This document shows positions 3,380-58,288 of a stretch of DNA of 64,000 bases, piece after piece. The stretch comes from Patescibacteria group bacterium (lineage in GTDB: Bacteria; Patescibacteriota; Patescibacteriia; SG8-24; DYFX01). Made by a program: the position numbers and the translations under genes. The stretch lies in the NCBI GenBank assembly GCA_041659045.1, contig JBAZZB010000004.1, forward strand, positions 28,129 to 92,128, written 5' to 3'. Within the stretch, counting starts at the first letter, position 1, and each line of letters begins with the position of its first letter. The notes beneath the pieces are model-generated. The model had not been told where the DNA came from, made no database searches, and saw only the letters and a list, made by a program, of their open reading frames with translations.

Positions 3380-3455
3380 GGGCCCGTAGCTCAACGGTTA
3401 GAGCACCGAGCTTATATCTCGGCGGTCGATGGTTCAAATCCATCCGGGCCTACCA
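3380..3455 (+). tRNA. tRNA-Ile (anticodon TAT)
   Basis: Manual cloverleaf: acceptor GGGCCCG/CGGGCCT, D-arm GCTC...GAGC, anticodon stem CCGAG/CTCGG with loop CTTATAT, T-arm GATGG-TTCAAAT-CCATC, encoded CCA. Confidence 0.8.
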
Positions 3456-3797: not shown

Positions 3798-4547
3798 ATG
3801 CATCTTCAAGAACCCTACGATCTCCTCGACCCCCTTTTTCTCGCGACGCGCGAGACATTCCCGGGGGAGAAAACTTTTCACGAATTAGCGAGAGGATTTT
3901 TCTCGCATGAGGCGGCAGAGCTGCGCGGTCGGAAAATTGCGGAGTTGCACGCCAGTACGGGCGTTCTCGTGCACATGGCCAACCCTGAGCAGCTCGACGA
4001 TTTGTTCGCGCACATTCATCGTCAGCACAAAGTGCGGTATCTTTCGACAACCTATCTGCACAAAGACATCCGTACATCGGTTTACGCGATCGGGCGCGGA
4101 ACTGGTATTTTGATCGATCCGGCGCAGGTGAAGATCGAACACGTGTCGCTCAACGATTCGAACAGCGAGACGGATCATGATGGTCGTCTGGTCGCAAGCG
4201 ACGACAAAAAAGTTTCAACGATCGAAGAATTGCACGCGGCGTTGCTCGCGGAAAAGCGCGATGATTGGAACGAGATCAACGCCAGTTTTGAAGGCGCATC
4301 ACCGATTCTCGGCTTTTTCGCGCTCGATGGCGTGATGTCGAAACTCTACGCTTCCGCGCTTTGGATCAAGGCTGGCGGACTCTTGCCGGTCTATACCTAT
4401 AATAGGGGAGCCAATCTTTTGGCGGAGTTTACGCCGACGCCCGAAGCGATCCGCGCGTTCGCCGATCAAACGACGAGCCCACATTTACGCGAAAAATATC
4501 GATCGCTGGCGCCTCTTTTGGAGCGGGTAGAGGCGCGTGTTTCTTGA
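3798..4547 (+). CDS. hypothetical protein
   Basis: 249-aa ORF with good GC3. No recognisable domain. Confidence 0.55.
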   Translation: MHLQEPYDLLDPLFLATRETFPGEKTFHELARGFFSHEAAELRGRKIAELHASTGVLVHMANPEQLDDLFAHIHRQHKVRYLSTTYLHKDIRTSVYAIGRGTGILIDPAQVKIEHVSLNDSNSETDHDGRLVASDDKKVSTIEELHAALLAEKRDDWNEINASFEGASPILGFFALDGVMSKLYASALWIKAGGLLPVYTYNRGANLLAEFTPTPEAIRAFADQTTSPHLREKYRSLAPLLERVEARVS

Positions 4548-4588: not shown

Positions 4589-4665
4589 TGGTGCGCGCTG
4601 AAGGAGTCGAACCTTCGACCTTCTCGACGTCAACGAGACGCTCTAGCCAACTGAGCTAAGCGCGC
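4589..4665 (-). tRNA. tRNA-Val (anticodon GAC)
   Basis: Reverse complement GCGCGCT-TA-GCTC-AGTTGGCTA-GAGC-G-TCTCG-TTGACGT-CGAGA-AGGTC-GAAGG-TTCGACT-CCTTC-AGCGCGC-A-CCA. Confidence 0.85.
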
Positions 4666-4785
4666 TCATGGCTGCCCACACGTTATACGATTCAAAAGAT
4701 TTTGGCAAGACCCGTCCCCAAGGGGATTCTTCGGCCGGCTTGTCCACTTCGCAAGCGGCGCGCGGTGCTATACTTTCCTTATACT

Positions 4786-28461: not shown

Positions 28462-28725
28462 TTACTGGCGCTCCGGGCGAGGCTGGGCTTCGTTCAGGGC
28501 GACGGGACGACCGACAATTTCCTTGCCGTTCATCTCAGCGATCGCCGCGGCGGCCTCCTCAGCGGAGGACATCTCGACGAAGCCGAAACCGCGCTTGCGG
28601 CCGGTCATACGGTCGACCGGGATGAACACGGAAACGACCGTACCGAACGGGCTGAAGGCTGCCTTGAGGTCATCCTCGGTGGCCTGAAAAGACAGGCTGC
28701 CGACGAAGATTTTGGCGCTGGCCAT
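28462..28725 (-). CDS. RRM-domain RNA-binding protein
   Basis: 87 aa. RNP2 KIFVGSLSF and RNP1 KRGFGFVEM are canonical RRM motifs. It is preceded on the minus strand by a roughly 150-nt leader. Confidence 0.8.
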   Translation of the reverse strand: MASAKIFVGSLSFQATEDDLKAAFSPFGTVVSVFIPVDRMTGRKRGFGFVEMSSAEEAAAAIAEMNGKEIVGRPVALNEAQPRPERQ

Positions 28726-29021
28726 ACTTGCGTTGGGCTTAGCGGGTGAGTTACAAAGGTTCGTAAACCTTTCACTCGTCTTTCGCACTGCGAGCTGGGT
28801 ATGGCTATCGCCGACCTCGTTCCTCGTGCTACGTACGCGTGTAAGGATAAGGTACACGAACCGGGGTAATTTGTCAATGAAAGCACCCTTGCCTGTCAAA
28901 CGCTCTGCAGGTAGGCTGAGGTAGCCCGTAACATCCGAGCCGCAGGCGAGGAAGAGGAGCGGCCGACAAGCGAGAGGGAGCGCAGAACCGCGCGACCGGC
29001 AGCTTGTCGGGTAAGCGACGA

Positions 29022-29101
29022 GGGCGCTTAGCTCAGTTGGTTAGAGCGACTCGCCCGGCATACGCCGGGCGCCCCGCGCATGCGGGGCGTTTACACCGAG
29101 T
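29022..29101 (+). pseudogene. disrupted tRNA-Val(TAC) 5' portion (positions 1-31, 36-nt palindromic insertion, then anticodon loop/stem 32-43)
   Basis: 29022-29053 is identical to the first 32 nt of the intact tRNA-Val at 29372. The insert is cccggcatacgccgggcgccccgcgcatgcggggcg. Then tttacaccgagt follows. Confidence 0.6.
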
Positions 29102-29136
29102 TGACAGAAAGTGGTGGTTTCCGTTCGACTCGCCTC

Positions 29137-29394
29137 ATGCATTATGTTTATGTGCTATGGAGCAAGAAGGATGGACGACGCTACGTCGGTTCCACCTCCG
29201 ATTTGCGAAGAAGATTTCGTGAACACACACTTGGTCGTGTTACCTCGACGAGACATCGACGCCCTCTCACACTACTTTGTTACGAAGCCTATCAGTCAAA
29301 GAATATTGCGTGTGCGAGAGAGCGGTATCTAAAAAGCAGCGACGGTCACAAGGATTTAAATAGGAGGTTTGGGGCGCTTAGCTCAGTTGGTTAG
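29137..29394 (+). CDS. GIY-YIG nuclease family protein (UPF0213/YhbQ-like)
   Basis: MHYVYVLWSKKDGRRYVGSTSDLRRRFREH...RRPLTLLCYEAYQS...ARERYLKS is the GIY-YIG core. The ORF frame extends 5' into the tRNA fragment, and the stop TAG lies inside the D-loop of the downstream tRNA. Confidence 0.7.
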   Translation: MHYVYVLWSKKDGRRYVGSTSDLRRRFREHTLGRVTSTRHRRPLTLLCYEAYQSKNIACARERYLKSSDGHKDLNRRFGALSSVG

Positions 29395-29448
29395 AGCGAC
29401 TCGTTTACACCGAGTAGGTCGTGGGTTCGAATCCTACAGCGCCCACCA
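29372..29448 (+). tRNA. tRNA-Val (anticodon TAC), intact copy
   Basis: GGGCGCT-TA-GCTC-AGTTGGTTA-GAGC-G-ACTCG-TTTACAC-CGAGT-AGGTC-GTGGG-TTCGAAT-CCTAC-AGCGCCC-A-CCA. Confidence 0.85.
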
Positions 29449-29472
29449 AAGAAAAAATGACACAGATGGATT

Positions 29473-29511
29473 TGCCCCGCGCATGCCGGGCGAATCCTAC
29501 AGCGCCCACCA
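29473..29511 (+). repeat. direct-repeat copy (tgccccgcgcatgccgggcg, matching 29070-29089) fused to a tRNA-Val 3' fragment (cgaatcctacagcgcccacca)
   Basis: 18 of 20 identical to the palindromic insert in the 5' fragment. The 3' fragment is identical to the T-arm/acceptor/CCA of the intact tRNA. Confidence 0.55.
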
Positions 29512-29688
29512 AAAGACGGTCCGAGAGGGTCGTTTTTTGTTTTGTGAAGCATCTTGACGTGACTCATCTTTTTTGCTACTTTATCTCGTCGTCGAGAGAT
29601 CGGCGCTTTCGGGGCAAACGTGCTCCGAATCGGCAAGGCGGGCGGTTCGTTTTGCCGAAAACCCAAAACCGCAACGTTGGAGGCTACG

Positions 29689-45956: not shown

Positions 45957-46556
45957 ATGCCCGCTGATCTGCCGATCACGGACGAAAGGCCGGGGGAGCA
46001 CCGCGCTGGGGCGTGGGTTGTTTTGGTTATGGGCCTGATAGGTCTCGGTCTCGGAGCCTACCAATGGCGCGCTTCATTCCGCGCCGCGTTCGTCAGTCAG
46101 GCCGGAACGTTCAAAACTCCGGACCAAGTCGAACAGGAGGAGATCGAAGCGATGAAAACAAAAGATACCGACAACGACACGCTCAGTGACTTTGAAGAAA
46201 CCTACGTTTACAAAACGAGCCCGTACCTCAACGACTCCGACTCCGACGAAACGGATGATGCGACGGAGCTGAAGGCGGGGGAGGACCCAAATTGTCCCAA
46301 AGGAAAAAGTTGCATCGAATCTGGGCTGGCCGCGACATCGTCGTCGACGGGTGCGGTGGCTAGCTCAACTGCCCAGATTGAAGAAGATGCGATGAAACAG
46401 CTCCTTAATCCGACGCCTGCGCAGATTCGCGCGCTCCTCATCCAAAACGGTGTGAAGGAAAGCGATCTCTCGGGTATCGATGACACGACGTTGCTGACGC
46501 TCTATCAGCAGTCGCTCCAGGAAGTCCAAGCCAATGCCGACAAGAACTCCAACTAA
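45957..46556 (+). CDS. bitopic acidic hypothetical protein (first gene of T4SS-like operon)
   Basis: 199 aa, one TM, then a D/E/S/T-rich ectodomain. It overlaps the giant gene's start. Confidence 0.5.
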   Translation: MPADLPITDERPGEHRAGAWVVLVMGLIGLGLGAYQWRASFRAAFVSQAGTFKTPDQVEQEEIEAMKTKDTDNDTLSDFEETYVYKTSPYLNDSDSDETDDATELKAGEDPNCPKGKSCIESGLAATSSSTGAVASSTAQIEEDAMKQLLNPTPAQIRALLIQNGVKESDLSGIDDTTLLTLYQQSLQEVQANADKNSN

Positions 46557-49500
46557 GATCCTCGTCGCCGCCCTGATCGCGTTCTTTATTGTTGCCAAAC
46601 CAGCGGCAGCGCAGTTTGGAATCCCTCAAGTCGTGGTTGATCCTGGAGCAAATGCGCAACTCGGTATTGCGAATGCGAACTTGGCCGCGCAAACTGCACA
46701 AGGGACGGTACAAACGACTGATACCGTCAAGCAGTCGGCATGGCAGGTGCTCAAAACGTCGTTGACGAACACTGCGGCGCTCGCGCTTTTGAACGGTGCC
46801 AATTATTTTGCGCAAAAAGTAGCATACGACGCCGCTGTCTACCTTGCTTCCGGCGGCAGTGGTCAAAAACCATTCTTCACGACAGAAGGGCTTGGTAATT
46901 ATCTTCAAAACACCGCTGCGGACGCGGCTGGCGAAGTGCTTGGCACCCTGACGTCGGATCCTGCGAGCTTTGGAAAATACGGCATCAATCTTTGTGTTCC
47001 AAAAACACCGCAGCTTGCGTTGAATTTCAAAATCGGATTCTTGAACGGTTTGCCGGGTATTCTCGGTACAGGTGGCCCAACGCCACCGACGCCGAAGTGT
47101 TCATGGGACAGCATCTCTACCAACTGGGATTCGTTTGTCAGCCAGGATTCCTCAGAGGTTTTGGATCAGGTCGGTATCATGTTCACTCCCGGCGAAAGCT
47201 CTCTTTCGGCCGCGATCGAACTCAACAACATCGCGCTCCAGCAAATCGCCGAGAAGAACCTCGAATCGTACGGCGATTATTTGGCGAACAAAGGTTTTAA
47301 ACCGGTACGCGACTTCATTTCGCGCGACATCAAAACGCCTGCCTCGACCATTGAGAAACAGCTCGATATTTCGATGGAGCAGGGCTGGAAACAAGGAGAC
47401 CGCACCGTGGCTATTACGGGCAGTGCTTTCAATAATGCCGCGTTCGGCATTCTCCCTGCGGCGCTCCAGACCTTCGCAGGCGCGCTCTCGGAACAACTCC
47501 TGAAGAAAGTCTTCACGCAAGGCTTGATTTCGGTCAGCGACCTCATGGGCAGCAACGGCGATCAGGCGCTCAGCTTCGGTGCTTCGCCGCCCGCGGGTGG
47601 ACGCGCTTCCGCAGAGCTCGCCAACGCCTCTCTTTTGACACCGAAGATTTTGTCAATCACCAATTATAACGAATTGACGGATTTTGCGACCTGTCCGACG
47701 AGCGGCAATACGACCAATCATTGCGTGATCGATACGCAGTTCTATAACGCCGTCAGCCGTGCCGATCAAGGACAAGCCATGACCGTTCGCCAGGCCGTTC
47801 AGCAAGGATTCCTGAACCGCGGTTGGCAGTTGCTTCCGCTTTCGCACCGCAAAAACCTTGAGACAACCTGTTACGGAGAAGCGTTCTGCTATTCCAATCT
47901 CGTGAAGTTGCGCCTCGCGCGCGTTCTGCCGATCGGTTGGGAAATGGCGGCCAACTCGCCGTTCAATGATGTGAATCGTCCCGTCACGCTTGGCGAAGCG
48001 ATGGATCGTTTTGAAGACTGCCCGCGCGACCCCTCCGGAGGCGTCGACGAGACGAGATTGCCCGACCCGCTGCACCCGTGGTGCCACATGGTCGATCCGG
48101 AATGGGTCTTGAAGTACCCGTCCGCCATTTGCCGCCAGCAGGCACCCGGCCCGACGCTCCTCTCGCCGCAGTCCTCAGCACGTGCTGAAAGCTGTGTGGA
48201 CGTGACCTCGTGCATTTCTCAAGATGCGTCTGGAAACTGCGTGGGCGGCTACGGCTACTGCGTCCGTGAAAAGGGTGTGTGGAAGCTTGATGCCGACGCT
48301 TGCCCCGCCCAGTACTCAAGCTGCACTGTCTACAACCGCGCTGATGGCGCGACATTTGCGTTCCTTGCGAACACGCTCGATGCGGGTCCGTGCAATTTAC
48401 AAAATGCCGGTTGCCGCCAGTACAGCCTCTCCACGAACTCAGTACCAAACGGAAGTTTTGAAGATCTTTTGGCTGGTCAGCCTCGCGACTGGACGCTTTC
48501 CGCCGGTGCGCGCCTTCATCGTTCCGGCACGCTTTCTTCGCATGGTGTAAATGCGGTCGGAGTCCTTGCTGGCAATGGTGCGAGTGTGCGGATCCCGTCC
48601 TTGATGCCTGGGAAGAGCTATGCCATTTCCGCAGGCGTCGTCCAAGAACTCGAAGGAACTTCAGCCGTTGGAACGATCCGTCTTACGTTCTTCAAAGCTG
48701 ATGGTACCCCGGTTGATACGTCGACACTCTCAACGACGTGTGAAAGCGAAAACCTCGGTCGCGCTGTTTCGCTTGATATCGCAACGACGGTTCTTGGATA
48801 TCAGAATGGCTCTTGCACGGTTACGACCCCTCCCGGTACGAATTCGGCGCTCTTGGAAATCAGTTCAAGTGCTCCTGCTGCGGGTAACCGCACGTGGTTC
48901 GATGCGCTCGGTGTCTTCGGGGAAGGATTCTCCACTTCACCCTATGACGGCATCTTCTTGAACAGCCAAGCAACGACCTGTTCCTCAGACGATGCTGGTT
49001 GCACCGAATTTGTCCGTGTTTCGACGGGGACGTTGAACTTGGTGCGCAACTCAGGCTTCGAAGAAGCAAGCACTGCGACGAACCGCGCCTTGTTCTGGAA
49101 CCTGGATCCGGCACGGTACAACCACGACACGTTCGTTGGTTCGCAAGGTGCTTCGTCCGTCACGCTCTCGCCGACGCCGGTGAGCCAGGATGTCTACGGT
49201 GTGCTCTCTGACGCTTCGTATAGCTTCTCAGTCGCCACGCGTCACTCCGGAACGGGCGCGGCACCTAACGCGCTTGCGACGATTCAGTTGTACGACACGA
49301 GTCCGACGCCTCAGGCCGTTTCACCGGTTACGGTCGATGGCTGCACGCTTTCTGGCTCATCCATGCAGCTCAATTTGGCTGTGGGGAACGAGTTCCAGAA
49401 CACGACGTGCTCGTTTACGACACCTTCCGATATCGGATACGCCAGAATCATTCTCACATCCAACTCTCCGACCGAGGACGTGTTGGCAGACGCCGTGCAA

Positions 49501-52500
49501 CTTGAACTCTCCGTTGGTGCGACCGCCTATCATGACGGCTATGCAAGTTCGGCGCAGCACGTGAACTTGAAGAAGGCTCCTGTCGGGCTCGACTGCTCTG
49601 GCGATGATCGCTCCGCTGAGTGCAGCAAGTACGCCCCTTCCTGCCGTCGCGACGAAGTCGGTTGTAACGCATACAACCCGATTGATGGCGGTACGGCTAT
49701 TACGGCAGTCACCACATCAAACGATGCTTGCCCTGTCGCCTGCGCTGGCTACGACACGTTCCGCCAGGAGCCGACGCAGTTCAACGAGTCGCGTTTCCCG
49801 CTCTTCTTGATTCCGAAGAGTGCGGAAGTTTGCACGGCCAACGAAGCAGGCTGCACCGAATTCACCAATATTGAAAAGCTCGCGCAAGGCGGCGAGTCGC
49901 GCGAATATTTCACGTACCTGCGCCTCTGCACCAAGCCGGACGATCAATCCGGTACCTACTATACGTGGGAAGGCAACGATGTGCGCGGATACCAACTCCG
50001 TTCGTGGTCGTTGCGCCGCAGCAACAGCACGTCGGTCATCAACGACTCCGACCCGACGGGTGGAACAGCGCCGTGTACGAAGCTCGCGTATGACGCAGCG
50101 GGCCAACCGCGCTGCGCCGATGACGCAGCAAGCGTTTTGGCTGCTTCCTGTACCAGAACGGACATCTCCTACAATCCCGACTGCCGCGAATTCTACGATG
50201 TTGACGGTAATATTCACTACCGCCTCTACTCGAAGACGATTCTCTCGACGGACAGCTGCCGCGAATACCGCATCACCAAGAGTTCGGAGACGGAATGCCG
50301 CGACCATGGCGGTCGCTGGCAGAACAACGAATGCCGCTACCTCGCCTACGCGCCGGAGAGCGCCTCTTGCGCTGCGACTGCTAAGGACTGCCGCGCGTAT
50401 TCCGGCAATGCTTCTCGTAACGTGCGTGTGATCGTCACGAACACCTTTGAAGTCGGAACGACGGAAGGTTGGACGGCGGCTCCAGGCGGCGGAAGCACGT
50501 CCGATGTCGTGAACAGTAACGAAGCTGTTTCGGCTGGCGGTCACTCGCTGAAAGCGACACGTGCGAACGTGACGAGCAATGTTTCTGGTCAGATCCGCAA
50601 AGGAAAATCATACCTCCTCACGTTCTGGGCTAAGGGCACAGGTGATTTGTCGGCACACTTGAGCCAAGCCGGCGATGAAAGCTTTACGTTTAATCGCACG
50701 ACCTCCACAGAATCACCAGTCAACCTGACGACGGAATGGCGCCCGTACCAGATTGGTCCGGTCGAAGCGATTAATGCTCCAGAAACAACTGAACAATTGA
50801 TCTTCGAGCGCCTCGGTGGGGGAGCGCCACTCTTCTTCCTTGATAACATCGAGCTTCGTGAGATCACTGACGATGTCTACTTGATTGAAGAATCGTGGGA
50901 GACACCGCTTGTCTGCGATCAGACGCCTTCTGGCGCTTCTTCACCGCAGTACATGCTCGGCTGCCGCGCCTACAAAGACCGAAGCAACACACAGTCGACG
51001 TTCAAGTCGTTTGAAAAACTGTGCCGCCCTGAAGCGGTCGGTTGCGAAGCTCTGTATGACACGAGGAACTCGGCGTCTCCGTTCGCGCAGACCTTCCGAG
51101 CCGTCTGTACGATCGCGGCCTCCTGTGTGCCTGGCTCTGGTTTGACGTGTCCGTGCGCTGTTGATGGCGCGACGGTCTGTCAGGTAACGAGAGGGGAGAC
51201 GAGCTGCCGGTATGACATCAACGACGATGTTCCGGCTTCACGCGTGAGCCCTACTGGCGACACCGTTCGCGTTTCTCCTGACGGCGTTGAGTATCTCGTG
51301 AACGACCTTCGCTATCGCTGCGATTCCGATGCGATCGGTTGTACCGCGATGGGCGACAAGCATATGAACAGCGCGCGCGACGCCGTTGATACTTGGAGCA
51401 CGGTGTATCTCCGCAACGTGCCGTCCGACTACGCGCGCACCCTCTGCAACGCGCCGGAACAATACTGCCAGGCCTACACGAAAAAAGCCGACGCATCGCC
51501 GGTCTTCTTCAAGGATCCTGAAGCGCGCATTTGTGAATTCCGTGATGGTGCCGCTGCGGGAAGCCGTGGTTGGTTCAAGAAGGGGACAAGCGATCCGTGC
51601 GATCCGACCTACCTTGAATCGGGTGACCGCTACGGCATCTGGAAGAACTCCGACGCGGCCTACGACGGCTGGGCGGGTGTCTGTTCTCCGCAGCACGACA
51701 TGTGTAAAGAGTTCATTGATCCGGTCGCAACGTCGTCCTCCTTCCCGAACGGAACGCCGTATTACGCGATTTTCAACGATCGCCTGGACACCAAGACGTG
51801 TCAGAACCGCGTGAGCTTGAATGAGTCGCCGTCGGGCGCGAACGCCGCTTCTGCCTGCGTCCTCTTCTGGCAGACAGATAACCTGACCAAGATCTACAGC
51901 GCTACGGCGACGTACGCCCTCTCCGATTCTCAGCGCGGTGCGCTCGTCGCTCCGCAACCAGGCGGTGCACTCAGTGATTCCAACACCATCATCCGCGTGC
52001 AACGTGATCGCCAGTGCGGCGAATGGCTTGATTGCCGCTCGCGCCGAACCGTCTTCAATGCTTCGACGGGTCAGTATCAAAACGTCTGCACGTCCTACAG
52101 CTTGTGCGCCGAATTCGAGCGTATCGGCAATACGACGCGCTGTGTCCGTTATGTCGAAAGCAGCTATTCGGGCACGACGCTCACGCCGGATATTTACTCG
52201 GCGCGCACGGTCGGATCGAAAGGTATGGATTACTCCGGTCTCGCGATTCCGAACCGCTATCCGGTGGACGAACTCGTGACCGTGAACGTTGGAGCGAGCG
52301 TTACGAAGCCGGATCTGCGACTCGTCTACGTCGGAGGCACGTGTAACGGTGCTTACGGAACATTCTGCGGTCCGGCTGATGACCAAGGCAGTTGCTTGGG
52401 TCCGGCTGGCAGCAGATTGTGTGTGCACCCGATCGACGGAGGTCGCCTCATTACATCAGAAGCACAGCTCAACCAACCGCAAATCGTCTCCGGTTATCCC

Positions 52501-55401
52501 GGTGCTTCTTGCCGCGCGTATCCGCAGGAGAACGCGCCGTTCCCGTCAAAAGTTGCCGATCCGAATGGCTGGGATTACGAGGCGGCTGAACTCAATGGCG
52601 GTAACCCCGTCCTGATCAGCCCGAGTCCGAGCTTCGCTGGCGCGAATGTCTGTCAGCGCCGTTTGGTGAACGGTGTCGAAGTATCGAGTTGTGAATGCAA
52701 CTACTTGGTCGCGAACTACGGTTCCGATAAGAAATATTTCCCAGCGGGCAGTTCGGATATCCCGAGCGGGTACTGCACTGGCGGCTTGTATGCCGGATAT
52801 GAGTGCGATCCTCTTGCTTCGGGTGCACGTTCACTCAACAATCCTTCCTGCTGCAGCAAGACCGCTGACAGTTCTTCTGGATTGCTTGCGAGCGGTTGCA
52901 ATGACGGCGCGCAGTGTATTCGTGTCAAAAAAGTGGATCGCGTGGTCGGCTATGAGGGTCAGTGTCTTGAGCGCGACATGACGCGCCCGATTAATGGCAC
53001 GTCCGACCAGTACGCGTGTTTGACCTGGCGCCCAGTTGGTCTGATCGGCGGCTCTCGCGACATCTACAACCAGAATCAGTCTGCGGGTTACTTCGCTTCC
53101 GCTGACCGCCGCTTCTACTGCGTTGGTGACCAACCGGCTTGGACGACGCATCTGGACATCAATACGACAGAGGACTTCGACAGCCGTGACAACATTGATG
53201 GCACGCTTGTTGGTCCGTACGACCAGTACACCAATAAGTTCTTTGGCACCGGTAAGGTCACGAATGGTTCATCGTCTGCAACTTGGCGCGCCGATTGTCA
53301 GAAAGCCGGTCCGGGGCAGTGGTGCCAGTGGCCGGGTATTTCTCGAGGTTCGCACGCGCCGCAATTGCGAGGTGACGGAACTGCGGTGAATTGTACGAGT
53401 GATAGCGATTGCTCGACGAACTACTACTGTAACGGGGACGCGACGACGTCTGATCGCAGCTGTGTTGCAGTCGCGGCGACGTATCACATCAATACGGAGG
53501 CCGTTGGTATTCTTGGTTGCTATGAAGTGGCCGACGAAGGTTCGGTCGACATGACCTACATCGACTTCCCATACATCGGCCCTCCGCTCTATCAGCAGCA
53601 GCTGAAGAGCATCTACTTCCAGGTTACTGACGATATCTACGACTACATCGCTCCGTTGCAGCCGGGCGAAATTCAGGTTCCGGATGACGCTACTGGCTCG
53701 ACGTATGATTTGTCGAAGATCGCTACGAACCCACACCAGAACATTATTGGCGACTGCAACGACGAAACTGACGACAACATTGATAATGAGGATAACGACG
53801 GTATCGATTCGGCCCCCGTTTCAGAGGCAGAAGTGGTCAGTTCGGATGCCGCGCGCAGTAAGAGTGTTTTCCACCTGAACGACACGAACAGCTGGAAAGT
53901 CGATCCTTCTGATGGCGAAGGAACTATTCTGCTTGCAGCCGCGTTCGACTCGAACGGTCTTCTGAAAACCATTCGCGTCGCCGCAAGCGATTCGGGCGAT
54001 GAAGGATCCTTCGGTATCAAGAGTATGGGCTTCCAGTTCAAGCCCGGTTGCGAACAGATCGCGCAGGTCGATCAACCTGGCGAGTTTGGCGCGACGGCGG
54101 CTTTCACGGATGTGGTCAATAACTTCCGAACCTTTGGAGGCTTTGGAGGAGAAACTGATATGTCTGGTCAAGCGTGGCAGCATGAATACGCTTGCAAGCC
54201 GTATGGTGCGATCGGTGCGATCTCGCAACCTCCTCCGAATAAACCGTGGACGTATGTTGCGGCGCGTCTCGCGACTGATGCTGAGCAGTGCACGGTGACG
54301 GACTTCACGAGGGGTGCAAATTACTCACTCGATATCCCCGCGGATTTCCTCGACACAGACTCGTTGCGACGACTCTTCCGCAAGGTCTACGCCGTGTGGG
54401 ACTACGTAAAGCTGAACTTCACGGCGGGCGGCAACACGTACACGTCGGTACCAAACCTGGCTGGCGACGCGTACTACAACGAAACGGGCACGGTTGATCC
54501 TACGACGCTCATGAACCGCAATGGTGCGGGAGCAATCTTCGGCAAAGTCTGGTATCCGCCGATCGTGGCTGCCGTCGATACGAGTAACTGCGATTCGAAC
54601 GGACGCTGTAAGATCTCGCGTACCAACGCATTGACGGTCAATGGCAAGTCGCAAGGTCTCTTGCTCGGCGCGGACGGCTCACTCAGCGTAACGGCCAAGT
54701 TCTACGCTTGGGCCTCGCACAACTCGATGCCGATTCTCCAGCGCACGGTGCTCTGGGGCGACTACACTGCGAAAGAACCGCCTGCGAAGGGCTGGTACAA
54801 AAACCAGAAACCGTTCTGCTCGCCGGATATTTCCGACGCGAACGCGGTAGGCGAGTGTTCGACCAACGGTATGACTTGCGATACGGACGCTGATTGTCTC
54901 GGTTCCGGCACGTGTGGCAAGGGTATCGGCAATCACTTCGGCAATACCCCGGGTGCCTGTAACGCGGGTACGTTCCAGTTCGACCATACCTACACCTGCA
55001 CGCTCCGTGATCTGCAAACGATGGCAGCGTGCACGGGTCCTGGCGATGCCGCTGACAACGCGCCGTGCTATCGCGTGCTCGACGGCGCTCCGACCTGCGT
55101 CTACCGACCGAAAGTTCAGGTCGTCGACAACTGGGGTTGGTGCAACTGTACTGGTGATGGTTGCGCGTACACGCTTAGCAACAACGGCGCGTATCGCGAA
55201 GGTTGCTCGTTGACGAACCCTCCGGCAAACGCAAAACCGTGGACCGAGTATGTCGGCGAAATCCGTCTTGCGCCTCGCGCCCAGGACGCGGCTGCCTTCG
55301 TTCCTGGTGGCGGCGGTCCTGGCGGGGGAGGAGGCGGCGGCTCGTTCGATCCTAGCGTCCTTGAACAGATCTTGAGCGGTGGCGGAATGTTCAGTCTTTG
55401 A
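46534..55401 (+). CDS. giant (2955 aa) secreted Cys-rich surface protein with at least three CBM4/9-like carbohydrate-binding modules and a Gly-rich C-terminus
   Basis: Signal peptide ILVAALIAFFIVAKPAAAQ. Three recurrences of the N-G-S-F-E...W...G-K-S-Y...(F/S)-W-A pattern, at roughly 48430, 49040 and 50440. More than 100 Cys. C-terminal PGGGGPGGGGGGGSF. Confidence 0.7.
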   Translation: MPTRTPTKILVAALIAFFIVAKPAAAQFGIPQVVVDPGANAQLGIANANLAAQTAQGTVQTTDTVKQSAWQVLKTSLTNTAALALLNGANYFAQKVAYDAAVYLASGGSGQKPFFTTEGLGNYLQNTAADAAGEVLGTLTSDPASFGKYGINLCVPKTPQLALNFKIGFLNGLPGILGTGGPTPPTPKCSWDSISTNWDSFVSQDSSEVLDQVGIMFTPGESSLSAAIELNNIALQQIAEKNLESYGDYLANKGFKPVRDFISRDIKTPASTIEKQLDISMEQGWKQGDRTVAITGSAFNNAAFGILPAALQTFAGALSEQLLKKVFTQGLISVSDLMGSNGDQALSFGASPPAGGRASAELANASLLTPKILSITNYNELTDFATCPTSGNTTNHCVIDTQFYNAVSRADQGQAMTVRQAVQQGFLNRGWQLLPLSHRKNLETTCYGEAFCYSNLVKLRLARVLPIGWEMAANSPFNDVNRPVTLGEAMDRFEDCPRDPSGGVDETRLPDPLHPWCHMVDPEWVLKYPSAICRQQAPGPTLLSPQSSARAESCVDVTSCISQDASGNCVGGYGYCVREKGVWKLDADACPAQYSSCTVYNRADGATFAFLANTLDAGPCNLQNAGCRQYSLSTNSVPNGSFEDLLAGQPRDWTLSAGARLHRSGTLSSHGVNAVGVLAGNGASVRIPSLMPGKSYAISAGVVQELEGTSAVGTIRLTFFKADGTPVDTSTLSTTCESENLGRAVSLDIATTVLGYQNGSCTVTTPPGTNSALLEISSSAPAAGNRTWFDALGVFGEGFSTSPYDGIFLNSQATTCSSDDAGCTEFVRVSTGTLNLVRNSGFEEASTATNRALFWNLDPARYNHDTFVGSQGASSVTLSPTPVSQDVYGVLSDASYSFSVATRHSGTGAAPNALATIQLYDTSPTPQAVSPVTVDGCTLSGSSMQLNLAVGNEFQNTTCSFTTPSDIGYARIILTSNSPTEDVLADAVQLELSVGATAYHDGYASSAQHVNLKKAPVGLDCSGDDRSAECSKYAPSCRRDEVGCNAYNPIDGGTAITAVTTSNDACPVACAGYDTFRQEPTQFNESRFPLFLIPKSAEVCTANEAGCTEFTNIEKLAQGGESREYFTYLRLCTKPDDQSGTYYTWEGNDVRGYQLRSWSLRRSNSTSVINDSDPTGGTAPCTKLAYDAAGQPRCADDAASVLAASCTRTDISYNPDCREFYDVDGNIHYRLYSKTILSTDSCREYRITKSSETECRDHGGRWQNNECRYLAYAPESASCAATAKDCRAYSGNASRNVRVIVTNTFEVGTTEGWTAAPGGGSTSDVVNSNEAVSAGGHSLKATRANVTSNVSGQIRKGKSYLLTFWAKGTGDLSAHLSQAGDESFTFNRTTSTESPVNLTTEWRPYQIGPVEAINAPETTEQLIFERLGGGAPLFFLDNIELREITDDVYLIEESWETPLVCDQTPSGASSPQYMLGCRAYKDRSNTQSTFKSFEKLCRPEAVGCEALYDTRNSASPFAQTFRAVCTIAASCVPGSGLTCPCAVDGATVCQVTRGETSCRYDINDDVPASRVSPTGDTVRVSPDGVEYLVNDLRYRCDSDAIGCTAMGDKHMNSARDAVDTWSTVYLRNVPSDYARTLCNAPEQYCQAYTKKADASPVFFKDPEARICEFRDGAAAGSRGWFKKGTSDPCDPTYLESGDRYGIWKNSDAAYDGWAGVCSPQHDMCKEFIDPVATSSSFPNGTPYYAIFNDRLDTKTCQNRVSLNESPSGANAASACVLFWQTDNLTKIYSATATYALSDSQRGALVAPQPGGALSDSNTIIRVQRDRQCGEWLDCRSRRTVFNASTGQYQNVCTSYSLCAEFERIGNTTRCVRYVESSYSGTTLTPDIYSARTVGSKGMDYSGLAIPNRYPVDELVTVNVGASVTKPDLRLVYVGGTCNGAYGTFCGPADDQGSCLGPAGSRLCVHPIDGGRLITSEAQLNQPQIVSGYPGASCRAYPQENAPFPSKVADPNGWDYEAAELNGGNPVLISPSPSFAGANVCQRRLVNGVEVSSCECNYLVANYGSDKKYFPAGSSDIPSGYCTGGLYAGYECDPLASGARSLNNPSCCSKTADSSSGLLASGCNDGAQCIRVKKVDRVVGYEGQCLERDMTRPINGTSDQYACLTWRPVGLIGGSRDIYNQNQSAGYFASADRRFYCVGDQPAWTTHLDINTTEDFDSRDNIDGTLVGPYDQYTNKFFGTGKVTNGSSSATWRADCQKAGPGQWCQWPGISRGSHAPQLRGDGTAVNCTSDSDCSTNYYCNGDATTSDRSCVAVAATYHINTEAVGILGCYEVADEGSVDMTYIDFPYIGPPLYQQQLKSIYFQVTDDIYDYIAPLQPGEIQVPDDATGSTYDLSKIATNPHQNIIGDCNDETDDNIDNEDNDGIDSAPVSEAEVVSSDAARSKSVFHLNDTNSWKVDPSDGEGTILLAAAFDSNGLLKTIRVAASDSGDEGSFGIKSMGFQFKPGCEQIAQVDQPGEFGATAAFTDVVNNFRTFGGFGGETDMSGQAWQHEYACKPYGAIGAISQPPPNKPWTYVAARLATDAEQCTVTDFTRGANYSLDIPADFLDTDSLRRLFRKVYAVWDYVKLNFTAGGNTYTSVPNLAGDAYYNETGTVDPTTLMNRNGAGAIFGKVWYPPIVAAVDTSNCDSNGRCKISRTNALTVNGKSQGLLLGADGSLSVTAKFYAWASHNSMPILQRTVLWGDYTAKEPPAKGWYKNQKPFCSPDISDANAVGECSTNGMTCDTDADCLGSGTCGKGIGNHFGNTPGACNAGTFQFDHTYTCTLRDLQTMAACTGPGDAADNAPCYRVLDGAPTCVYRPKVQVVDNWGWCNCTGDGCAYTLSNNGAYREGCSLTNPPANAKPWTEYVGEIRLAPRAQDAAAFVPGGGGPGGGGGGGSFDPSVLEQILSGGGMFSL

Positions 55402-55405
55402 TTCT

Positions 55406-58288
55406 ATGAATTTTTTCCAGCGCCTTCACGTCAAACTTAACCTCCTCTTCTCCGGGAAGAGGAGGATTTGGCGTCTGATGGCGCTCGGTGCATTGGCTGT
55501 CGTTGGCTTCGCGCTCCCTGGTGTTGTACAAGCGGCTGGCTGTGGCTTGAGCAGTCCTGAAATCTGTATCGCGACGATCTTCGTCTGGATCTTCCAGAGA
55601 CTCACGGCGCTCATGGGGTTCATTTTGATCATGGAGGTGGACGCGTTGATCCGTGTGGCGGGGTACTTCAACTTCGTCTCACCGGGTCCGACGGCTGTCC
55701 GTATTGGTTGGGTCGTGACGCGCGACTTGGCGAACATGTTCTTCATCGTGTTCCTCATGATCATCGCCTTCAGCACGGTCATCGGGTACTCCAAGTACCA
55801 CTATGAGCAGACGTTGAAGAAACTTCTGATCATGGCGGTTATCATCAACTTTTCGAAGACGATCGTTGGTTTGATGATCGATATCAGCCAGGTGGTGATG
55901 CTCTCGTTCGTGAACGGTTTCCGTGCTGCGGCGGCGGGTAACTTCATGAACGCATTCCAAATCAATAAGCTGCTCGCGCTTGGCGACGGTCCAGCCGAGT
56001 ACAATTTCGGTTTGGTGCTCGCCATGATGCTGGCCTTCATTTTGGCCGCCATCGCCGCGTGCGTCGTGCTCGTCATGCTCGTCATGCTCGTTTTCCGCGT
56101 CATCATGCTGTGGGTACTGATCATTCTCTCTCCCATCGCGTTTTTGACAGCGGCATTTCCTTTGAGCGGCGGCTACTACGCGCAATGGTGGGGCGAACTC
56201 AAAAAATACCTTATCGGCGGTCCTGTTGTCGCTTTCTTCTTGTGGTTGGCGCTGGCAACGGCGCAACAAACGGCGGGAAACCTTTCGTCTCCGCAAGAAG
56301 GCTGGGGCGTGCAATCGGCGGCCTCTGCTCAGGAAGTCGAAGGCCAAGCCACAAAGTCGCAAATCCCAAGCGAAGCCGGACGCACCGACACGATTCTCAG
56401 CATGGTGATTGTTTGCTGCATCATGTTCGCGGGTTTGAAGTTCGCGGCTGATCCGGCCATCAGCGGCTTGGCATCAGGCTTCGCTGGTAAGGTGAAAGGA
56501 AAAGCTGTTTCCGCATTGCGCGCTGGTACCGTTGGCGTTGCCGGGTATGGTTTGAAGCGCGCCGCGGAGCCTGTGATGACGACCGTCGGCAAGGGATTGG
56601 CGCGCGTGCCGCTGGTTGGTGCCGCGGGCCGCTACATGGCGCTGAAGGGAGAGGGGATGAAGAAGGCGCGTCTTGCTGGGCGTGAGAAGATGTTTGGCGG
56701 CGCGGAAGATATGGCGCGTCTCAGCCCCGGAGCCTTTACGAGGAAACTTGGCGGCTTGAAAGACCCTAGGGAGATCGACAAGTACATGAAGATCGCGAGC
56801 GCGAATCCTGATTTGATGGCGAGTCTCGCCCCAAAGGAATCAATTAATCCGCTGACAGGCAAGCGAGAGATAAAGGGTGTTGGCCGTGATGTGATGAAGC
56901 AATGGGCTTCGAGCGACAGCCCAGCTGCCGCGAAGTTCATGATGGGCGACGCGCGTTCGAAAGCTTGGTTGAAGAATGATCCGGAGCTTCTCAAGCAGAC
57001 GTATGACGGTCTGAAAGATACGGCCGAGAAGGATCCGAATCGCAAAAAAGATCTTAGTGAGTTCGAGCAGAAAATGGCTGTTCCGTTGCAGAAGAACGGC
57101 ATGTTCGGAAATATCCCGTCTGTTGTCAAAGAAAAACTCGCAGGACTTGTTCCGAAGATGTCCGCTGATGACTTTAAGGATGTCGCGGGCTCTGACATGG
57201 GCACGTTCATGGAGCACATGACGGGCAAACAGTTCCGGGAAATGGCCGTGGACGGAAAGACCGACCAGCAACTCGGCATGTCTTCTGAGCTGGCCAAAAT
57301 GCCGAAGGACAAGGCCCTCGAATTCATGCGTGAACGCGGTTTGAACGCCACCGAAGTTCCTGATTCTTGGTATTCCAACGAGCACGTTGCGGATTACGTC
57401 TTGGCCTCCACGTCCGGCAAGGCTGAAGCACGCGGCAAAATCATGGCAGATGAGACGCGTGCGAAAGCGCTGCAAGATGCTGCGAAGCGCGGACTGTCCG
57501 GCCCGAACGCACCGACTGACGATAACAAGCGCGCGGCCGCGGCTGTGCAGGCGATGTCGGTTGGGGCTCTTAAGGTCAGCGACCTGGATGTTGGTGATGC
57601 CAGCGGCAAGACGCTTCGAGACGTGCTTAGCCGTAGTGGAGACACGGCAGCGATCGCTCGCAATATCGACAAGGACGATCCTGATCAGTTGGCTGTCGGA
57701 CGCGAAATCTTCAAGACGATCATGGGTCAAGATCCGACTCGTGCTCGCAACTTGAGCAAGAATGATCTCTATAACAAGCTCCTGCCTTCAAAAGCAGAAA
57801 TTGACGCCGCTGTCACGGCCGCCGCTGCCGCGCAAGCGGCTGGAGTAGCCCAAGTCAAAACGACTGAAAGGGAAGTTGAACGTAGGGGATTGGCGGGAGA
57901 TGCGGTGAACGTGAAGGCCGACCTTTCTGGACAACTGAAGGCGTTGCAAGACGCGATTCATGAGGATCGCCTGGCTGGACGTCCTACGGCTACAAAAGAA
58001 CAGCAGGCAGATCAGGTCGCGAAAGCGATGCAGGACCTCACGCGCGCGACAGAACAGCGTGCGAACGCTGAACAAGAATTGGCGCAGGAGATGCAGAGGC
58101 TTTCCGTTGCCAGCTCTACTGGCGGTGATGCGGCAGCGATTCAAAGCGCCGTCGACCGCTTGAAGAAAGGTATTCAAGACCTGGATTCAACGTTGGCCAA
58201 GCAGGTCGCGACAATTAAAGGTATTAAGTTCGATGAAGGTGGTGGCGGCGGTCGCAAGAACCGCGGCGGCGGGGGAGGACGCGTATGA
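55406..58288 (+). CDS. VirB6/TrbL-like polytopic membrane protein with roughly 550-aa hydrophilic coiled-coil C-terminal extension
   Basis: Signal-like N-terminus, then 6 or more TM helices with the Gly/Ala-rich VirB6/TrbL pattern (MLAFILAAIAACVVLVMLVML, SPIAFLTAAFPL). Long Ala/Lys/Glu-rich tail ending GGGGGRKNRGGGGGRV. Confidence 0.6.
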   Translation: MNFFQRLHVKLNLLFSGKRRIWRLMALGALAVVGFALPGVVQAAGCGLSSPEICIATIFVWIFQRLTALMGFILIMEVDALIRVAGYFNFVSPGPTAVRIGWVVTRDLANMFFIVFLMIIAFSTVIGYSKYHYEQTLKKLLIMAVIINFSKTIVGLMIDISQVVMLSFVNGFRAAAAGNFMNAFQINKLLALGDGPAEYNFGLVLAMMLAFILAAIAACVVLVMLVMLVFRVIMLWVLIILSPIAFLTAAFPLSGGYYAQWWGELKKYLIGGPVVAFFLWLALATAQQTAGNLSSPQEGWGVQSAASAQEVEGQATKSQIPSEAGRTDTILSMVIVCCIMFAGLKFAADPAISGLASGFAGKVKGKAVSALRAGTVGVAGYGLKRAAEPVMTTVGKGLARVPLVGAAGRYMALKGEGMKKARLAGREKMFGGAEDMARLSPGAFTRKLGGLKDPREIDKYMKIASANPDLMASLAPKESINPLTGKREIKGVGRDVMKQWASSDSPAAAKFMMGDARSKAWLKNDPELLKQTYDGLKDTAEKDPNRKKDLSEFEQKMAVPLQKNGMFGNIPSVVKEKLAGLVPKMSADDFKDVAGSDMGTFMEHMTGKQFREMAVDGKTDQQLGMSSELAKMPKDKALEFMRERGLNATEVPDSWYSNEHVADYVLASTSGKAEARGKIMADETRAKALQDAAKRGLSGPNAPTDDNKRAAAAVQAMSVGALKVSDLDVGDASGKTLRDVLSRSGDTAAIARNIDKDDPDQLAVGREIFKTIMGQDPTRARNLSKNDLYNKLLPSKAEIDAAVTAAAAAQAAGVAQVKTTEREVERRGLAGDAVNVKADLSGQLKALQDAIHEDRLAGRPTATKEQQADQVAKAMQDLTRATEQRANAEQELAQEMQRLSVASSTGGDAAAIQSAVDRLKKGIQDLDSTLAKQVATIKGIKFDEGGGGGRKNRGGGGGRV

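Follow-up and report, generated by a model that had tools for sequence, protein, structure and literature searches.

Putatively mobile cassettes of a small GIY-YIG nuclease gene and hairpin elements inside tRNA transcription units

Introduction

Among the small stand-alone GIY-YIG proteins, the Ssn family is to our knowledge the only group with a known activity. Its members, assigned to CDD cd10448 where UPF0213 has cd10456, are single-domain nucleases of ∼94 amino acids (aa) that bind NTS/SRM hairpins flanking their own gene and cut single-stranded DNA (ssDNA) beside these hairpins, a site-specific cleavage that by definition of the family spares double-stranded DNA and RNA, in a layout that the authors liken to an insertion sequence; for SsnA and its NTS, restriction of incoming ssDNA or of recombination has been proposed (Chenal et al. 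2025, PMC11893778). Here we describe a locus in a stretch of 64,000 nucleotides (nt) from a Patescibacteria group bacterium (assembly GCA_041659045.1, contig JBAZZB010000004.1, positions 28,129 to 92,128 of the forward strand; hereafter the window, with positions counted from its first letter), where a tiny GIY-YIG nuclease gene, hairpin elements and partial tRNA gene copies lie around an intact gene for tRNA-Val(TAC). As far as we could find, the Ssn family is its closest precedent, and the locus is a tRNA-targeted variant of small-GIY-YIG-plus-hairpin systems. The word tRNA is absent from the Ssn paper (PMC11893778), and a full-text search of the literature found no description of a bacterial architecture combining GIY-YIG gene, tRNA gene and hairpin.

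Both systems have a tiny bare GIY-YIG domain (85 aa here, 94 aa in Ssn), GC-rich hairpin repeats flanking the gene, solo hairpins elsewhere and an insertion-sequence-like layout. They differ in the sequence class of the hairpin, which here is a double-hairpin element (DHE) formed by an inverted pair, and in that the elements described here sit in tRNA loops, are accompanied by partial tRNA duplications, and have an open reading frame (ORF) fused to the tRNA transcription unit. No match to the SRM pattern HGTCWYN(0-2)YYVSBRHN(0-5)WNVSBRGN(0-2)RNCYNB was found around 71 ORFs (−400 to +600 nt), and in all the 547 kb searched there were five.

Free-standing homing genes, such as the seg genes of phage T4 and the mobile ORF with duplicated gene end in Allomyces mitochondrial atp6, are alike in that a nuclease gene lies beside a conserved target, part-duplicated so that its function is kept, in spreading by recombination with flanking homology, and in host-to-host homology that is limited to the cassette. 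Unlike these, the system here lacks a DNA-binding domain, is not set in a phage or organelle, and has a conserved structured hairpin partner, non-autonomous hairpin-only derivatives, and the loop of a structural RNA gene as target. Another comparison is with the REP/BIME sequences and their RAYT proteins (IS200/IS605-like Y1 transposases) and with mitochondrial double-hairpin elements or GC clusters; these likewise have short, GC-rich, covarying hairpins multiplied in the genome, one small nuclease-type gene, and insertion with little or no target duplication. The nuclease fold is GIY-YIG (hydrolytic) here and HUH there, and here the copy number per genome is apparently low, with copies tied to tRNA genes rather than dispersed between genes. 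UPF0213, YhbQ and prokaryotic SLX1-like proteins give the best sequence and fold matches to the nuclease, but a tRNA or hairpin context is undescribed for them; a 2006 GIY-YIG survey, in which the prokaryotic stand-alone proteins group with SLX1, mentions no linkage to tRNA genes (PMC1564403).

Our best reading, to which we would give a probability of about 0.55, is that the locus holds a single member of a family of selfish mobile nuclease-and-hairpin cassettes that live inside tRNA transcription units and use conserved tRNA sequence as both target and homology arms. The family is apparently widespread and previously undescribed. Its autonomous form is a gene for an ∼85-aa single-domain GIY-YIG protein together with a cognate 36-nt DHE, and ORF-less DHE forms are the non-autonomous partners.

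Recurrence and forms of the cassette

With an alignment of close homologues, 70 loci were retrieved from species-representative genomes. Their hosts are many Patescibacteria lineages, Syntrophaceae/Smithella, Chryseobacterium, metagenome-assembled genomes (MAGs) labelled Gammaproteobacteria, and one contig that was binned as Methanoregula. At 56 of the 70 loci a same-strand tRNA gene begins between −15 and +80 nt after the ORF, and a contig end cuts three more. tRNA-Ser isoacceptors prevail among the 70 (45 loci), with Tyr, Gln, Glu, Asp and Arg also represented, and over all loci the same architecture recurs at genes for Pro, Thr, Lys and Asn tRNAs as well; of 96 related loci, only that of the window is at a Val gene. 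Among relatives of the window protein, the four closest (65–72% identity) share its layout, at Ser-tga, Ser-gga, Ser-gct and Arg(GCG) genes, the last of which is cut by a contig end and was read by eye, ARAGORN having made no call. The Methanoregula sp. contig (L030 in our numbering of loci) carries a canonical cassette at tRNA-Ser(gct), which reflects either cross-domain transfer or mis-binning.

At most loci partial copies of the neighbouring intact tRNA are found on one or both sides. A 5′ partial copy (nt 1 to ∼37 or ∼71) lies 60–250 nt upstream of the ORF in most, and a 3′ partial copy, the last ∼21 nt, lies 40–120 nt past the intact tRNA in many; these copies begin 0–7 nt before tRNA nt 1 in 23 of 28 cases and end 0–2 nt after the CCA. 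The DHE sits in a loop of the disabled, truncated tRNA copy, next to which the same tRNA is always retained in intact form.

Two arrangements can be distinguished. Form 1 reads [tRNA nt 1 to loop]-DHE-[5–12 further tRNA nt]-leader-ORF-[intact tRNA], as in L009, L029, L019, L038, L093 and L094, and has an ORF-less version where 5–60 nt replaces the ORF (L085 at Pro, L092 at Gln, L080 at Thr, L072, L087). Form 2 reads [intact tRNA]-spacer-[T-stem 5′ strand + TTCG]-DHE-[AATCC to 3′ end], as in L013, L034, L077 (Asn) and L078 (Lys), while in L079 the spacer holds the ORF itself. Tandem arrays occur, with three units in L027, two in L080, and two identical ORF units in L014, whose older pseudo-tRNA carries a second DHE in its anticodon loop. 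Hairpins have also been inserted into anticodon and D loops without any duplication, and as single units; a single-hairpin state is seen in Smithella SCADC. ORFs are decayed or truncated at seven loci (L059, L064, L065, L069, L070, L081, L083).

The pseudo (∼1115–1205) and intact (∼1296–1384) tRNA-Ser(gga) copies of L072/L084 are distinguished by one acceptor-stem base and by a compensatory change, from G-C to A-T, in the stem of the variable arm; this is a hint, from one example only, that they descend from separate lineages of functional tRNA.

Integrated elements are classically recognized by partial 3′ tRNA copies (for example bioRxiv 10.1101/2022.07.05.498093), and tandem tRNA duplications are common, so that the fragments might be thought to be scars (att duplications) of integrase-mediated integration or excision next to an unrelated GIY-YIG gene, or else products of the decay of a tandem tRNA duplication. 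We find this very improbable. The unit has no tyrosine or serine recombinase ORF, and its repeats are 40–400 nt apart, those of the window 63–350 nt, where integrative elements span several kb; the junction carries the same conserved DHE at dozens of independent loci from different phyla, the distance between ORF and DHE is held to 14–39 nt, and the fragment ends are stereotyped. That the fragments are simply old decay products, as the preliminary description of this stretch had allowed, is likewise at odds with an arrangement that recurs across many phyla and is not a one-off.

The double-hairpin element

The 36-nt insert of the window recurs near-verbatim in distant genomes, at more than 45 related loci. 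Its general form is CG-[xCCxGC-ATNC-GCxGGx]-CG-[xCCxGC-GNAT-GCxGGx]-CG, an inverted dimer of one 16-nt hairpin. At least 34 loci have a strict DHE 30–120 nt upstream of the ORF, and the distance from the DHE end to the ORF start has a median of 21.5 nt (range 14–39). The context is a T-loop or nearly so for ∼27 of 31 strict DHEs, 23 of which match the strict pattern GGTTCG|DHE|AATCC. The others are in T-loop-like sequences of anticodon or D loops, for example CTCG|TTT (the window), CTCG|AAA in tRNA-Ser(CGA) and CCCG|GTT in a tRNA-Asp.

An ascertainment-free covariation test was based on a pattern search of metagenomes with four stem pairs left unspecified, which gave 15 distinct DHEs. Free stem cells were paired in 58 of 60 cases, with 3–4 pair types per position and 19 both-sided changes, and the covariation score was 0.297, against 0.083 in shuffles (0 of 500 reached the observed value). 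Sliding the partners lowers the pairing to 36–46%. Since the stems covary and pairing collapses when partners are slid, the hairpin structure itself is selected. A search of metagenomes with the DHE only gave 22 loci, of which 21 adjoin a tRNA gene on the same strand and the 22nd is a truncated duplicate of another; the GIY-YIG ORF is missing from 12 of the 22. The palindrome, first viewed as an incidental insert or as a direct repeat at the cassette ends, is thus to be seen as a conserved, covarying element that normally occupies the T-loop and occurs also without the ORF.

Simple target-site duplication finds no support as a general rule for insertion: CG is not duplicated at the 36-nt insert of L042, and partial copies reach 5–12 nt past the hairpin.

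Several other features of hairpins and leaders were observed. Three Chryseobacterium loci (L066–L068, ∼3890–3950), from isolate or near-isolate genomes, have the same architecture with a different, 20-nt hairpin, CCTGTCTGCCGACAGGCAGG, which sits in the anticodon loop of a pseudo-tRNA-Glu and is doubled in L067. A third hairpin class, GCCCCGAGATAGACTCGGGGC paired with GTCCCGGGTTTATCCCGGGAC, is found 50–70 nt upstream of the ORF in L055, L058, L060 and L062; its occurrence at the same position suggests co-evolving pairs of nuclease and hairpin. After the anticodon-loop DHE of L017 (1205–1224) and L010 there is a tandem duplication, immediately ahead of the ATG, of the 10-nt AAATCGATTT, which consists of the 3′ half of the anticodon loop and the 3′ strand of its stem. 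The DHE is GC-rich and free of stop codons, and gene callers run ORFs through it (library proteins P0014, P0020, P0022 and P0100, and window ORF 29004–29222), so that spurious DHE-derived N-termini such as RRMPGES and AGRPAxAGRI are a systematic annotation artefact. Three further library proteins (P0038, P0163, P0192) have N-terminal read-through peptides with repeated NP(T/A)WFMGT, probably translated from yet further cognate repeats that precede the GIY-YIG genes of other subfamilies.

The nuclease

The window protein belongs to the GIY-YIG superfamily, matching PF01541 with 59.3 bits (cut-off 22.6) over at least residues 1–69, and it has all the family-invariant residues Y5, Y16, R26, H30, E62 and K66. 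Its AlphaFold model (mean confidence score, pLDDT, 93) has the GIY-YIG fold with E-E-H-E-H-H topology. By sequence the closest solved structures are those of UPF0213 proteins BH0048 (1zg2, E = 4.6e-11) and EF2693, with 1ywl among the best UPF0213 structure matches, and the SLX1 nuclease domain comes next; identity to UPF0213/YhbQ/SLX1-like proteins is ∼30–34%. The match to I-TevI is marginal (E = 0.9 by sequence, 0.1 by fold), and a fold search gives the same ranking. TIGR01453 matches with 24 bits (cut-off 56) over residues 3–31 only, and the homing-endonuclease, phage and defence profiles of PHROG and PADLOC and the NCBIfam profiles gave only sub-threshold matches confined to N-terminal residues 1–37. 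With 85 aa and no extra domain, the protein lacks the C-terminal DNA-binding module and the length (>200 aa) of the I-TevI/Seg type, and lies within the single-domain range of the Ssn family (≤150 aa). Judged by these comparisons it is a minimal SLX1/UPF0213-like GIY-YIG domain, Ssn-like in its bareness, and not an I-TevI-like homing endonuclease. A profile of the clade matches 16,853 clusters (50% identity) in a library of 1.8 billion proteins, 3,586 of them at E ≤ 1e-10.

Classical intronless homing, which is close to the view of the preliminary description, would nevertheless explain part of what is seen. An enzyme acting on duplex DNA would cut the palindromic T-loop sequence TTCGAA, a single insertion would have delivered ORF, tRNA and hairpins together, and the hairpins would merely disrupt the recognition site of the dead copy. 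Target and DHE are both two-fold symmetric, cassette-limited homology fits, and CG flanks the insert, as expected from a 2-nt staggered cut; such a stagger is known from GIY-YIG restriction and homing enzymes, and phage T4 has in SegB a free-standing homing enzyme of the GIY-YIG type that belongs to a cluster of tRNA genes. We still consider this explanation unlikely, for a protein that has no DNA-binding domain, is nearest to UPF0213/SLX1 and matches homing profiles over its first ∼30 residues only does not suit it, nor does the cleavable T-loop that the intact tRNA keeps in every cassette. Stem covariation speaks of selection on the hairpin structure itself, and hairpins that enter anticodon and D loops singly or without duplication, like the missing CG duplication of L042, are not what it predicts.

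Mobility and vertical retention

Several comparisons indicate horizontal movement. The window ORF has a GC content of 47.5% and a third-position GC content (GC3) of 45.9%, against a GC3 of 66–71% in neighbouring genes, a foreign composition. Cassettes that are 82–89% identical in nucleotide sequence have flanks with no nucleotide or translated similarity in L005/L006, L040/L049 and L040/L047, and in L004/L008, whose cassettes are similar to the same degree, the flank proteins are only 36–60% identical. Between distant hosts, the shared DNA starts with the first pseudo-tRNA and stops where the intact tRNA has its 3′ end. In this the family behaves like homing-type elements, which spread horizontally into a conserved target with homology limited to the cassette and its exon-like flanks. 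A neighbour-joining tree of the proteins, from which the window protein was left out, mixes tRNA identities and host taxa, and in two cases (L006/L009, L022/L034) a single MAG has two copies at different tRNA-Ser genes. Hairpins turn over as well: two Smithella strains with flanks ∼99% identical differ by exactly one (nested) hairpin plus CG, 41 nt, in a T-loop fragment.

The preliminary description suggested checking whether the nuclease clusters with housekeeping YhbQ-like proteins. UPF0213 structures are its best sequence matches, but a single orthologue of conserved context and vertical descent is not what is seen: the distribution is patchy, two MAGs each have two copies at different tRNAs, contexts are unrelated and the window ORF has foreign GC3.

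Other lineages tell of long residence. Loci of Syntrophaceae/Smithella and of some Moraniibacteriota are syntenic over kilobases, and the ratio of non-synonymous to synonymous substitution rates (dN/dS) of ORF pairs is 0.02–0.10 even with dS ∼1–2, indicating strong purifying selection. Kilobase-scale synteny and low dN/dS together therefore mean long vertical inheritance with a working protein in those lineages.

Such a pattern invites the idea of a domesticated, host-serving system, which would restrict incoming ssDNA or recombination at tRNA loci, or guard tRNA genes against integrating elements, and whose tRNA fragments would be by-products of past recombination. Integrases reportedly prefer anticodon-loop and T-loop sublocations within tRNA genes (Williams 2002), and these coincide with the positions of the DHE. 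Constraint on the protein even near dS saturation and synteny over kilobases in Syntrophaceae/Smithella and some Moraniibacteriota would also be in keeping, and SsnA modulates transformation in Neisseria (PMC11893778). The patchy distribution, the decayed or truncated ORFs, the foreign GC of the window ORF and the placing of cassettes in unrelated contexts do not agree with a host function, however, and defence profiles show no link to the system; we hold this account to be somewhat less probable than classical homing.

Downstream of the cassette, the 96–97% identical loci L043 (∼4620–4720) and L057 have a sequence like that of the signal recognition particle (SRP) RNA, and two indels of 80–95 nt that resemble REP elements.

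The tRNA-Val locus of the window

All features of the locus that have a strand lie on the forward (+) strand; the hairpin elements are unstranded. The locus opens with a 5′ partial copy of tRNA-Val(TAC), nt 1–32, at 29022–29053, identical at 32 of 32 positions to 29372–29403 and spanning the acceptor 5′ strand, the D-arm and the 5′ strand of the anticodon stem. The 36-nt DHE follows at 29054–29089, consisting of hairpin cccggcATACgccggg (29054–29069), CG, hairpin ccccgcGCATgcgggg (29072–29087) and CG; in the predicted fold its two hairpins are closed by the anticodon stem. It is placed in the anticodon loop (CTCG|TTT), unlike the usual T-loop position. The partial copy then resumes with nt 33–44, the anticodon loop and 3′ stem strand (29090–29101), which makes a 14-nt exact repeat when the CG is counted (29088–29101). 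An ORF leader at 29102–29136 contains a degenerate remnant of the variable region and T-arm, recognized by gapped alignment to tRNA nt 45–60, with GTGG...GTTCGA at 29111–29128 and the T-loop remnant GTTCGA at 29123–29128.

The nuclease gene (85 aa plus stop; PF01541, E = 4.5e-16) occupies 29137–29394, and its TAG stop (29392–29394) falls within the D-loop of the tRNA-Val(TAC) gene at 29372–29448, which is intact and presumably functional and encodes CCA (ARAGORN; Rfam RF00005, 72.8 bits). Because the stop lies 20 nt inside the tRNA, an RNase P cut at the tRNA 5′ end would leave a stop-less message; as a side inference, full-length nuclease could then be made only from the unprocessed precursor.

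Past the tRNA comes an A-rich spacer of 24 nt (29449–29472) ending in GGATT, which in the predicted fold pairs with the AATCC 3′ of the downstream hairpin. A half DHE at 29473–29492, formed by TG, one 16-nt hairpin CCCCGCGCATGCCGGG (29475–29490) and CG, is identical at 15 of 16 hairpin positions to 29072–29087. It runs into a 3′ partial tRNA copy at 29491–29513, a 23-nt exact repeat of 29428–29450 containing the CG, the 3′ half of the T-loop, the 3′ strands of T-stem and acceptor stem with CCA, and AA. A hairpin with a T tract resembling an intrinsic terminator (29510–29539; terminator scan and fold) is probably the original tRNA terminator. Elsewhere in the 64 kb of the window the hairpin motif has only chance-level matches with three mismatches, the tRNA alone is matched in an Rfam scan, which offers no family for the hairpins, and a scan for sigma-70 promoters upstream of the locus found none.

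The elements set out in the preliminary description, from the 5′ fragment with its palindromic insert and resumed loop and stem, through the ORF that stops within the D-loop, to the near-copy of the palindrome joined to the tRNA 3′ end and terminator, are all borne out at these positions, and alignment to the intact copy supports its view of the fragments as remains, or arms, of a tRNA-Val gene. It had also proposed that the gene was split by one inserted cassette. Nuclease and intact tRNA do behave as a horizontally moving cassette, but the locus does not look like a single clean insertion: its layout seems composite, with the ORF-bearing 5′-duplication form (Form 1, with an anticodon-loop DHE and a decayed T-arm) joined to the ORF-less 3′-duplication form (Form 2, with a half DHE), and the anticodon-loop DHE looks like a secondary, later insertion. 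In our reading the window copy is aged, and the unit as a whole is still bounded by the promoter region and the terminator of the original tRNA.

The locus is directly preceded by a gene for a small RRM_1 RNA-binding protein (28462–28899, − strand; PF00076, 4.7e-22), with its likely start at a Met near 28725. Elsewhere in the window ARAGORN finds a tRNA-Ile with the rare anticodon TAT (3380–3455, +); in most bacteria AUA is decoded by a lysidine-modified CAT tRNA. A 2955-aa ORF (46534–55401, +) is followed by an overlapping 969-aa ORF (55379–58288, +), and giant proteins of such size are typical of Patescibacteria surface or attachment systems.

Mechanism and significance

For the selfish mobile cassette that we favour, two steps may be proposed. 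The nuclease would recognize the hairpin or loop structure and cut beside it at CG, most likely on single-stranded or extruded DNA if the analogy with Ssn is good. A copy that bears the cassette would then serve to mend the broken tRNA gene through homologous recombination, in which tRNA sequence alone would supply the homology arms, upstream for the 5′ part and within or behind the intact tRNA for the 3′ part. The scheme would account for partial copies that begin and end at tRNA termini, for a tRNA that is never lost, and for the dominance of tRNA-Ser isoacceptors, whose termini are shared.

A number of observations weigh against the selfish cassette. The cleaved strand, the DNA or RNA form of the substrate and the cut position are transferred to this clade by analogy. 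The intact tRNA keeps an uninterrupted T-loop, and should still be a target if duplex TTCGAA were cut. Recombination limited by homology does not explain the inner ends of the partial copies, 5–12 nt beyond the DHE, and the model does not account for the colonization of new tRNA species such as Val. A search of metagenome contigs for an empty site of the window locus, with a junction pattern of intact T-loop, 3′ end and native downstream flank, gave 0 matches. Viral contigs gave no DHE match and no relative of the protein, and a plasmid collection one weak protein match only (38% identity). Strong purifying selection and synteny fit better with long vertical retention than with constant homing; a homing gene that is purely selfish would seldom be kept in this way, which allows for a role that is host-serving or addictive.

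A bolder version, which we put forward tentatively and think unlikely, is a new kind of DNA transposon-like system with a hydrolytic nuclease only, which would read folded tRNA genes (as cloverleaf or ssDNA), insert hairpins into their loops and make the stereotyped partial duplications by a defined mechanism and not through chance rescue. If true, it would be a tRNA-structure-guided mobile element common to the Candidate Phyla Radiation (CPR), Deltaproteobacteria-like lineages and Bacteroidota.

For the selfish cassette itself, gene, cognate hairpin and target (tRNA loops) can all be read from sequence, which gives a large protein family a concrete, testable role. The cassette explains a class of partial tRNA genes and of over-extended ORF calls in metagenome-assembled genomes, and its relatives may provide a tool in the form of new hairpin-specific nucleases with defined sites. 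It seems to exploit the near-universal conservation of tRNA as portable homology arms, and hence a route of gene transfer between phyla.

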